A stretch of DNA of 4,281 nucleotides, taken from IMG/VR virus record IMGVR_UViG_2778261453_000010, positions 1 to 4,281 of that record. The stretch is one strand, 5' to 3'. Positions within the stretch are counted from its first letter, which is position 1, and every line of letters begins with the position of its first letter. Source of the stretch: a virus. Taxonomy: Duplodnaviria; Heunggongvirae; Uroviricota; Caudoviricetes. The notes below the pieces were generated by a model. It had not been told where the DNA came from. It saw only the letters and a program-made list of their open reading frames with translations, and searched no databases. Below are positions 623 to 1,015 of the stretch, piece by piece. Made by a program: the position numbers and the translations under genes.

Positions 623-955
623 TCAGGGTGCAGAAGGACTAAAGATAAACGTTTTCTTCACGCCTTTACGCGGCCTGTCCTTCTCAAATCGCCATTTTGC
701 CATCGCCTTTACAACCTGCTCATCAAACAGATGGTGCGGCTCTGAACGGATAAACTCAATTCGGGTGACAGTACCATCAGCACCAATATCAAACTTCACA
801 TCAACCCGTCCCTTTATATAATTTGCCGCTGCATAGGCCGGATATTGTGGTAATGCCTTCACCAATTGTCGGGGCATATCTGTTTTATGTTGCGTACAGC
901 CCATAACCAGAGAAGACAACAAAATAATTAACGGAAGATTTCTTTTCATTTTCAT
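623..955 (-). CDS. Probable lipoprotein consisting of a signal peptide plus an isolated TonB C-terminal domain (TonB mimic), about 110 aa
   Basis: N-terminus MKMKRNLPLIILLSSLVMGC has a basic n-region, a hydrophobic core and a lipobox-like VMGC, with Thr at +2 (outer-membrane sorting by the Lol rule). Residues about 38-105 (LPQYPAYAAANYIKGRVDVKFDIGADGTVTRIEFIRSEPHHLFDEQVVKAMAKWRFEKDRPRKG) align well with my recollection of the E. coli TonB C-terminal domain ([60 protein letters not shown]). Start is ambiguous: ATG at 955 or 949, with a GTG at 964 in frame. Confidence 0.75.
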   Translation of the reverse strand: MKMKRNLPLIILLSSLVMGCTQHKTDMPRQLVKALPQYPAYAAANYIKGRVDVKFDIGADGTVTRIEFIRSEPHHLFDEQVVKAMAKWRFEKDRPRKGVKKTFIFSPSAP

Positions 956-969
956 TCCCGGCACAGATA

Positions 970-986
970 AGAATAAGTCTTATTCT
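970..986. promoter_or_regulatory. Perfect 8-1-8 palindrome AGAATAAG-t-CTTATTCT (candidate operator, Fur-box-like) upstream of the lipoprotein gene
   Basis: Read directly from the sequence: 970-977 AGAATAAG, 978 t, 979-986 CTTATTCT. Together with GATA at 966-969, a 19-nt comparison within GATAAGAATAAGTCTTATTC matches about 13/19 positions of the Fur consensus GATAATGATAATCATTATC. It overlaps the putative -10 of the lipoprotein gene. Confidence 0.35.
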
Positions 987-1015
987 AACAATGCCACCCT
1001 GTCGGTCATCAATCC
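982..1015 (-). promoter_or_regulatory. Candidate sigma70 promoter for the lipoprotein gene (extended -10 TGTTAGAAT; weak -35)
   Basis: Minus strand reads ...TTGATGACCGACAGGGTGGCATTGTTAGAATAAGACTTATTC...; TGn-TAGAAT is the reverse complement of plus 982-990. The -35 is poor (TGACCG/TTGATG at non-ideal spacing). The call is by eye only. Confidence 0.3.

Follow-up and report, generated by a model that had tools for sequence, protein, structure and literature searches.

Why does a lambdoid prophage carry, beyond its lysis genes, a small lipoprotein gene built around the C-terminal domain (CTD) of TonB? We addressed this question in a 4,281-nucleotide stretch of tailed-phage DNA (IMG/VR record IMGVR_UViG_2778261453_000010, positions 1 to 4,281; this whole stretch is called the window below). 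This DNA comes from the late/lysis region of a lambdoid prophage, and its late genes lie on the minus strand. A first-pass annotation made from the DNA letters had proposed that the gene product is an isolated TonB CTD that could protect the lysogen from TonB-dependent phages and colicins. Sequence comparison indicates that this product, here called the TonB_C lipoprotein, is not a TonB but a TonB_C domain uncoupled from energy. Its best explanation, to which we give a probability of only about 0.35, is that it would act as a decoy for TonB boxes and damp TonB-dependent entry into the cell.

A lipoprotein signal joined to a TonB C-terminal domain

The gene and the parts of its product are located as follows.

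623..949, minus strand: coding sequence of the TonB_C lipoprotein (108 amino acids from the ATG at 949; stop codon 623-625; PGAP WP_000828070.1)
896..949, minus strand: signal peptide MKRNLPLIILLSSLVMG and the codon of the lipidated Cys (896-898), from the PROSITE lipobox pattern
638..874, minus strand: TonB CTD, equivalent to residues 153-231 of Escherichia coli TonB, from Pfam/NCBIfam, ungapped alignment, and AlphaFold2 with Foldseek

Profile searches placed the domain in the TonB_C family. The score was 56.0 bits against Pfam TonB_C (PF03544; cut-off 24.6), as the first-pass annotation had anticipated, and 56.5 bits against TIGR01352 tonB_Cterm (cut-off 27.1); TonB_C and TonB_2 were the only Pfam matches of the protein. 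A phmmer search against PDB chains retrieved the E. coli TonB CTD entries 1u07, 2gsk, 2grx and 1xx3 at E values of about 1e-16. Residues 28-106 aligned without gaps with TonB 153-231, and 31 of the 79 positions were identical (39%). Residues are numbered here in a 110-amino-acid frame, and adding 125 gives the TonB numbering.

An AlphaFold2 model, for which 13 family sequences served as input, had predicted local distance difference test values >90 at residues 30-105. The predicted fold was the alpha/beta fold of the TonB CTD, a three-stranded sheet packed on two helices. Foldseek superposed the model on 1u07_A with a root-mean-square deviation (rmsd) of 1.3 Å over 83 columns, on 2gsk_B (TonB from the BtuB:TonB complex) with 1.1 Å over 79 columns and a template modelling score (TM) of 0.91, and on 2grx_C (TonB from the FhuA:TonB complex) with 1.2 Å over 76 columns. 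The likeness to the TonB CTD that had been noticed in the letters is thus also seen in the predicted structure, at 1.1-1.3 Å.

The YP motif of TonB (Y163, P164) is retained as Y38 and P39, and the core residues F180, G186, F202, W213 and F230 of TonB are retained as F55, G61, F77, W88 and F105; F90 stands at the position of TonB Y215. Residues 96-105 form an amphipathic beta3 in the model, the counterpart of the edge strand with which TonB pairs with TonB boxes. Since the protein ends only 5 residues past beta3, with SPSAP, no C-terminal segment covers this edge.

At the N-terminus, MKRNLPLIILLSSLVMG followed by Cys fits the PROSITE lipoprotein pattern, with LVMGC as the lipobox and Thr at position +2. 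The features of PROSITE PS51257 type are present, namely a basic n-region, a hydrophobic core, a lipobox of the form [LVI]-x-[GAS]-C and a +2 residue other than Asp. By the Lol rule applied to the +2 residue, the protein is predicted to be sorted to the outer membrane, because this residue is Thr and not Asp. The lipobox Cys is invariant in the family alignment, and the +2 residue is never Asp in the TonB_C lipoprotein and the intact relatives examined. Each of these relatives fits the lipobox pattern except P0047, in which the proline of PLSAC is the sole misfit. A linker of 7 residues, TQHKTDM, leads from the lipidated Cys to the domain. The lipobox, the non-Asp +2 residue and a linker of 7-11 residues are kept in relatives down to about 40% identity, and relatives with the conserved lipobox Cys, the short linker and the domain were found in Escherichia, Klebsiella, Raoultella and Salmonella-labelled genomes. 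The lipobox pattern, taken together with the profile, alignment and model, bears out the earlier description of a lipoprotein signal joined almost directly to a TonB CTD.

The other parts of TonB are absent. In place of the uncleaved N-terminal transmembrane anchor, which couples TonB to ExbB/ExbD, the protein begins with a cleavable lipoprotein signal, and instead of a Pro-rich spacer that spans the periplasm there are only the 7 residues between Cys and domain. NCBIfam TonB equivalog models aligned over the C-terminal 80 positions only, scoring 73 bits against a cut-off of 315. The absence of anchor and spacer, which the first-pass annotation had pointed out, is therefore evident in a protein whose whole length is 108 amino acids.

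The reading frame itself needed one correction. The open reading frame (ORF) at 623..964 on the minus strand contains two in-frame ATG codons, at 955 and 949, which give 110 and 108 amino acids, respectively. The RefSeq/PGAP entry WP_000828070.1, 'TonB family protein', starts at 949. Sequence comparison makes 949 more likely than 955 as the start, because the Shine-Dalgarno sequence and ATG of the phage 21 homologue align there. The gene proposed at 623..955 thus stands, while its start at 955 adds two residues too many. The window-type and phage 21-type E. coli alleles encode proteins with 71% identity, and their comparison gave pN 0.16, pS 0.62 and dN/dS 0.14; we regard the gene as a working gene under purifying selection. 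Some frameshifted variants are found in databases, such as the C-terminal variant P0012 (130 member sequences).

Position, origin and spread of the gene

The other features of the window are as follows.

3580-3795, minus strand: S21-type class II holin (Pfam Phage_holin_2_1)
3231-3575, minus strand: DUF1327/YdfR (Pfam DUF1327)
2647-3180, minus strand: endolysin, a phage lysozyme (Pfam Phage_lysozyme)
about 2006-2354, minus strand: small membrane ORFs (ORF list)
1510..2004, minus strand: Rz i-spanin (Pfam Phage_lysis, 170 bits)
1599-1784, minus strand: Rz1 o-spanin, embedded in Rz (Pfam, 76 bits)
1289-1513, minus strand: 74-amino-acid ORF, its start overlapping the Rz stop (ATGA); hypothetical in RefSeq
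982..1009, minus strand: sigma-70 promoter-like site TGTTAGAAT (ATGACC, 16-nucleotide spacer, TAGAAT, TG extended -10)
492..1084, minus strand: low-GC insert, consisting of the TonB_C gene and the spacers on both sides of it (43-44% GC)
291-491, plus strand: YlcI/YnfO, convergent

The order on the minus strand is holin S21, DUF1327, endolysin, Rz/Rz1, the 74-amino-acid ORF and the TonB_C gene, followed by YlcI/YnfO on the plus strand, HNH and terminase. The annotation of the lysis cassette agrees with that of an E. coli chromosome carrying a near-identical prophage. That chromosome, 100% identical at window positions 500-1100, continues downstream with the HNH endonuclease, terminase, and head and tail genes; the same prophage also bears the effector genes nleB2, nleC, nleH and nleF.

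Comparable positions were found in other phages. In phage 21 the order is Rz/Rz1, bor (opposite strand), a 45-amino-acid ORF, the TonB_C gene, two small ORFs and cos, and in the icd-integrated prophage of E. coli Nissle 1917 it is rzpD, iss (opposite strand), the TonB_C gene and terminase. Klebsiella phage ST13-OXA48phi12.4 has the gene between the spanins and terminase/cos on the late-gene strand, and a metagenomic prophage contig (P0043) shows a DUF2514 spanin, the TonB_C gene, HNH and terminase. Thus, in all prophage contexts seen, the gene lies between the spanins and terminase/cos on the late-gene strand. The gene order in the window, and the location of the gene just beyond bor or iss in phage 21 and Nissle, agree with the Bor-like moron position after the spanins that the first-pass annotation had assigned.

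The gene differs in composition from the phage DNA around it. Flanking DNA has 54-57% GC, against 43-44% in the insert and 44% in the gene itself. The insert lies between a conserved block of 57% GC and ylcI/ynfO, and its low GC is typical of a moron. The alignment with phage 21 is poor from the conserved block to the -10 region. The block, about 190 bp at 1085-1280 upstream of the gene, is more strongly conserved with phage 21 than the gene's own coding sequence. A total of 398 phage records contain it, mostly without annotation, among them lambda, 434 and many Shiga toxin (Stx) phages; it is not specific to the TonB_C gene and had no Rfam match.

Expression was considered from the signals in the DNA. 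The promoter-like site at 982..1009 has 9 of 12 consensus matches, and such sites are no commoner in the window than in shuffles; its -10 segment, TGTyAGAATAAGAC, is conserved in phage 21. The site may function as a promoter, from which the gene may be expressed at a low level in lysogens. No terminator-like site was predicted in the spacer 956-1288 between the 74-amino-acid ORF and the TonB_C gene, and the only candidate terminators downstream of Rz/Rz1 were a weak hairpin at 1477-1462, inside the 74-amino-acid ORF, and a plus-strand site at 1490-1503. Given the orientation of the gene, which is that of the late operon, and the spacer free of predicted terminators, late read-through transcription would be expected during lytic growth. 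A Fur box was considered at the palindrome AGAATAAGtCTTATTCT (968-984) over the -10 region and rejected: it matches the 19-mer consensus at 13/19 positions, the usual maximum in shuffled windows, and is not conserved in phage 21. Rfam searches at E up to 1 gave no structured RNA near the gene, and no tRNAs were found.

Several observations concern the rest of the window. The 74-amino-acid ORF matches only the middle (positions 100-172 of 291) of PHROG 2571. On the minus strand at 2006-2646, small hydrophobic ORFs between endolysin and Rz match PHROGs 4906 and 4493, and coordinate offsets suggest that this segment holds about 156 bp more than the near-identical E. coli prophage. A strong terminator-like hairpin (2556-2524) directly follows the endolysin gene, within the lysis cassette. 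On the plus strand at 4004-4088, a strong stem-loop followed by a T-run lies antisense to the late operon, past the stop of the upstream minus-strand gene; its sub-threshold Rfam match to ncr982 (28.5 bits, E 0.31) probably reflects the terminator shape alone.

We examined where the gene came from. An exhaustive HMMER search revealed many other short lipoproteins made of a lipobox and TonB_C. Chromosomal relatives consist of lipobox, short linker and TonB_C in 104-133 amino acids. Over the domain alone, identity was 46-51% to the small TonB_C lipoproteins and 38% to enterobacterial TonB, and the subfamily signatures YPxYA, SEPxHLFD and AKWRFE..KP are unlike TonB. Direct capture of a host tonB was rejected on the grounds that the domain is nearer to the lipoprotein subfamily than to TonB and that the gene has 44% GC. 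Since the domain is nearer to the chromosomal lipoproteins than to TonB, the prophages therefore appear to have acquired a member of a pre-existing bacterial lipoprotein subfamily. In Klebsiella and Raoultella the homologue lies after lacZ-lacI, beside a Spy/CpxP-like periplasmic protein and a glycine-zipper lipoprotein; other chromosomal relatives adjoin ahpCF and a glutathione S-transferase (GST) gene, or usp and an acetyltransferase gene. At one Klebsiella sp. locus (4939-5857 of the extract), the Spy/CpxP-like protein (136 amino acids) and the glycine-zipper Rick_17kDa_Anti lipoprotein (142 amino acids) precede the homologue. The same arrangement after lacI recurs in further loci, and the three genes may form a small envelope-stress set. 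Many top-scoring relatives (P0042, P0044, P0050 and others) are proteins of 300-1300 amino acids with 3-5 tandem TonB_C domains.

The gene is widespread in E. coli. Sensitive blastn found it in 1616 of 5426 complete genomes (about 30%), with about 415 carrying the window-type allele and about 1200 the phage 21-like allele; all rows inspected were labelled 'TonB family protein' except one partial 44% match annotated as lysozyme. Carriers include O157:H7, the avian pathogenic E. coli (APEC) strains O18 and O1, Nissle 1917 and 'FDA strain Seattle 1946', with the gene in two copies in the last of these. Among phages it is carried by Stx1a-converting phages, Lys8385Vzw, JLK-2012, phage 21, ev017, Perceval and a Klebsiella phage. 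Existing labels are 'TonB family protein', 'TonB C-terminal domain protein' (phage 21), 'TonB fragment' and 'partial tonB-like membrane protein ... CP-933N'. The gene is thus already annotated, and the functional idea alone is new. A full-text literature search returned no functional study of the gene and no decoy idea, and the phage 21 genome announcement does not discuss the gene. The suggestion that this would be an undescribed prophage exclusion mechanism therefore holds for the idea and not for the gene, which is widely annotated. The BFVD viral structure library gave no match at E up to 0.001.

Cargo near the gene was also noted. Phage 21 carries the iron/manganese transporter sitABCD (phage 21 record 12968-16417), and in the icd-integrated prophage of Nissle (extracted locus 16360-19526) an ompC-like porin gene and iss lie by the TonB_C gene. 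A link to iron supply through sit was rejected: sit was present in 7/7 phage records with the phage 21-type allele and in 0/7 with the window-type allele, and about 19 sit-positive phage records have no TonB_C gene. The co-occurrence looks like lineage linkage or shared ancestry and not an independent association.

What the TonB_C lipoprotein may do

In the decoy reading, the protein would be made at least by late lytic transcription and perhaps at a low level in lysogens. Its lipid anchor would sit in the inner leaflet of the outer membrane and hold the TonB_C domain on a 7-residue tether at the periplasmic face; the lipobox with its non-Asp +2 residue and the short linker would place the domain where TonB boxes emerge. 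The exposed beta3 edge strand would then pair with the TonB-box strand of ligand-loaded TonB-dependent transporters, and possibly also with the TonB boxes that group B colicins carry as they enter. Because it has no membrane anchor, Pro-rich rod or ExbB/ExbD link, the decoy could not pull on the plug. By competing with TonB, it would damp the entry of T1/phi80-type phages, group B colicins, catecholate microcins and siderophores.

Published work makes such a mechanism conceivable. PMC9841981 reports that an overexpressed periplasmic TonB domain inhibits TonB-dependent iron import (citing Howard et al. 2001, J Bacteriol 183:5885), which agrees with the dominant-negative principle that the first-pass annotation had invoked, and that killing by colicins and infection by phi80 are both inhibited by a TonB-box pentapeptide (citing Tuckman & Osburne 1992). 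A comparable strategy is known from two small outer-membrane lipoproteins, Llp of T5 and the prophage protein Cor, which act at the periplasmic side of FhuA to inactivate it; Llp and TonB compete for this surface (bioRxiv 10.64898/2026.03.26.714494). Also in favor of a decoy, several unrelated lambdoid prophages of Escherichia and Klebsiella have the gene in a moron-type low-GC insert where bor/iss lie.

Several points weigh against this reading. Judging from the alignment, the TonB residues that contact receptors are not retained: TonB Q160 is L in this protein and varies in the family (L/Y/Q/P/H), the residue at R158 also varies, and an invariant Tyr stands at R166. A decoy would also require the 7-residue tether to reach the TonB box in the orientation of TonB. 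The family exists outside phages and did not evolve as a phage weapon, and its partner may differ. The literature search gave no binding, exclusion or expression data on the TonB_C lipoprotein, and PADLOC-DB gave no defence-family match at E up to 0.01. Finally, the carriers include Nissle 1917, APEC and extraintestinal pathogenic E. coli (ExPEC) strains, and 'FDA strain Seattle 1946', which we take to be ATCC 25922. Nissle 1917 and ExPEC strains need siderophore uptake through TonB, and ATCC 25922 is the quality-control strain for cefiderocol, a drug taken up by TonB-dependent transporters. Because these carriers depend on TonB uptake or are assayed through it, a strong constitutive block in lysogens is unlikely. 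If there is a decoy effect, it must be partial, depend on conditions or occur only during lytic growth.

The range of phages affected was also narrowed. T5, which uses FhuA, and BF23 infect without TonB. T5 had been listed among the expected targets of the protein; this part of the proposal is withdrawn, and T5 becomes a negative control like BF23 and lambda. T1 and phi80 would be the relevant phage targets of a decoy. The central tail fibre of phage 21 resembles lambda J, so the TonB_C gene would exclude other phages and not reinfection by the same phage; no cor was annotated in the phage 21 regions inspected. That about 30% of E. coli carry a lipid-tethered dominant-negative TonB, which would give generic and not receptor-specific protection, seems to us doubtful. 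If true, the protection would extend to TonB-dependent phages, group B colicins, catecholate microcins and siderophore-conjugated antibiotics.

Among the alternatives, a role in the envelope survives best, and we consider it possible on somewhat tentative grounds. Here the TonB_C fold would bind a partner other than a TonB box, for instance peptidoglycan or a different protein of the outer membrane or periplasm. The envelope of the lysogen would thereby change, as with Bor and Iss, in its tolerance of stress or its resistance to serum or host factors. The nearest relatives form a distinct lipoprotein subfamily, as the domain identities of 46-51% versus 38% for TonB show; the residues invariant in it (YPxYA, SEPxHLFD, AKWRFE) differ from those of TonB, and its Klebsiella and Raoultella members stand beside the Spy/CpxP-like protein and the glycine-zipper lipoprotein. 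The proximity to iss and bor in Nissle and phage 21 points the same way, as does the retention of working TonB uptake in carriers. Peptidoglycan binding has been claimed for the TonB CTD. TonB-like CTDs can switch ligand, as in FusB, whose CTD binds ferredoxin (PDB 9hi3). Against an envelope role, no alternative partner emerged, and the model shows an intact fold with an intact beta3 edge, the element that TonB uses to pair with TonB boxes.

It is less probable, and in our judgment unlikely, that the protein serves the lytic cycle itself. It would then be transcribed from the late promoter with the lysis genes and act only in the last minutes of infection, either shutting TonB-dependent gates to superinfecting phages and colicins during maturation of the progeny or modifying contacts between outer membrane and peptidoglycan at about the time when the spanins act. 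The late-operon orientation in the window, phage 21, the Klebsiella phage, the P0043 contig and Nissle fits such a role, as does the lack of a predicted terminator-like site in the spacer 956-1288, and PHROG 1267, which matches the protein over its full length (146 bits), is filed under 'lysis'. That group's label of 'Rz-like spanin', however, looks derived from position, and the gene is intact in integrase-disrupted prophages such as that of Nissle and in chromosomal non-phage contexts, which argues for a benefit outside lysis. A protection lasting mere minutes is also hard to justify.

The data contradict two further readings. A decaying, functionless fragment of a captured tonB is very improbable: the old annotations 'partial tonB-like' and 'TonB fragment' and the frameshifted variants (P0012) invite it, but the dN/dS of 0.14, the full lipoprotein signal kept down to about 40% identity, the intact, annotated gene in 1616/5426 E. 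coli genomes, the closer affinity of the domain to the lipoprotein subfamily than to any TonB and the 44% GC, unlike the flanking phage DNA, all oppose it. A spanin component (o-spanin or unimolecular u-spanin), as the name of PHROG 1267 (E 1.9e-42) and the encoding of an outer-membrane lipoprotein near Rz would have it, is hardly credible, since canonical Rz and embedded Rz1 are already there (Pfam 170 and 76 bits), a 74-amino-acid ORF and 336 bp separate Rz from the gene, and the defining features of spanins contradict that annotation, the protein having a globular TonB_C domain in place of a short, Pro-rich, unstructured o-spanin and no C-terminal transmembrane segment as in a u-spanin.

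Comparison with known systems and meaning for the host

What is unusual about the TonB_C lipoprotein is its architecture, in which a known domain stands alone on a lipid tether, and an inhibitory role for it appears plausible. With the E. coli TonB CTD (about 150-239; 1U07, 2GSK with BtuB, 2GRX with FhuA) it shares the domain, the predicted fold, YP, the aromatic core and beta3. Unlike TonB, it has neither transmembrane anchor nor Pro-rich spacer, its lipid anchor is predicted to be in the outer and not the inner membrane, it ends right after beta3, and it does not conserve Q160 and R158 and has Tyr for R166.

Engineered periplasmic TonB fragments (Howard et al. 2001, as cited in PMC9841981) are the functional model for the protein in that they too are energy-uncoupled periplasmic TonB domains. 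Those fragments are soluble, artificial and TonB-derived and need overexpression, whereas the TonB_C lipoprotein is natural, lipid-tethered and a member of a diverged subfamily. Llp and Cor are likewise small, phage-encoded outer-membrane lipoproteins, and the proposed target side, the periplasmic face of a TonB-dependent transporter, would be shared. Their fold is unrelated, however, with no sequence or profile similarity. Llp and Cor act specifically on FhuA, closing its extracellular loops allosterically, whereas a TonB_C decoy would be directed at the TonB box in general, so that phages with no need of TonB, such as T5, should escape it.

Bor of lambda and Iss resemble the protein as outer-membrane lipoprotein morons in the interval from the spanins to cos/terminase, and their genes are adjacent to it in phage 21 and Nissle. 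There is no homology between them, and bor/iss run opposite to the late-operon strand, on which the TonB_C gene lies. The chromosomal TonB_C lipoproteins of Klebsiella, Raoultella and other Gammaproteobacteria have the same architecture and signatures as the prophage protein; they differ in lying outside prophages, labelled 'TonB family protein' and uncharacterised.

Should the decoy idea fail, the TonB_C lipoprotein would still represent a widespread, uncharacterised subfamily of outer-membrane lipoproteins with a TonB_C fold, whose partner is worth finding. If it is true, the protein would be the first natural inhibitor aimed at the TonB box common to all TonB-dependent transporters, where Llp and Cor target FhuA, and it would offer the TonB field a natural membrane-tethered probe of TonB-box exposure. 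It would represent a new class of exclusion or tolerance factor, and its chromosomal relatives would be endogenous brakes on TonB-dependent transport. Many E. coli, both pathogens and probiotics, could then show altered sensitivity to T1/phi80-like phages, group B colicins, microcins and siderophore-drug conjugates of the cefiderocol type, and prophage carriage would be tied to iron physiology.

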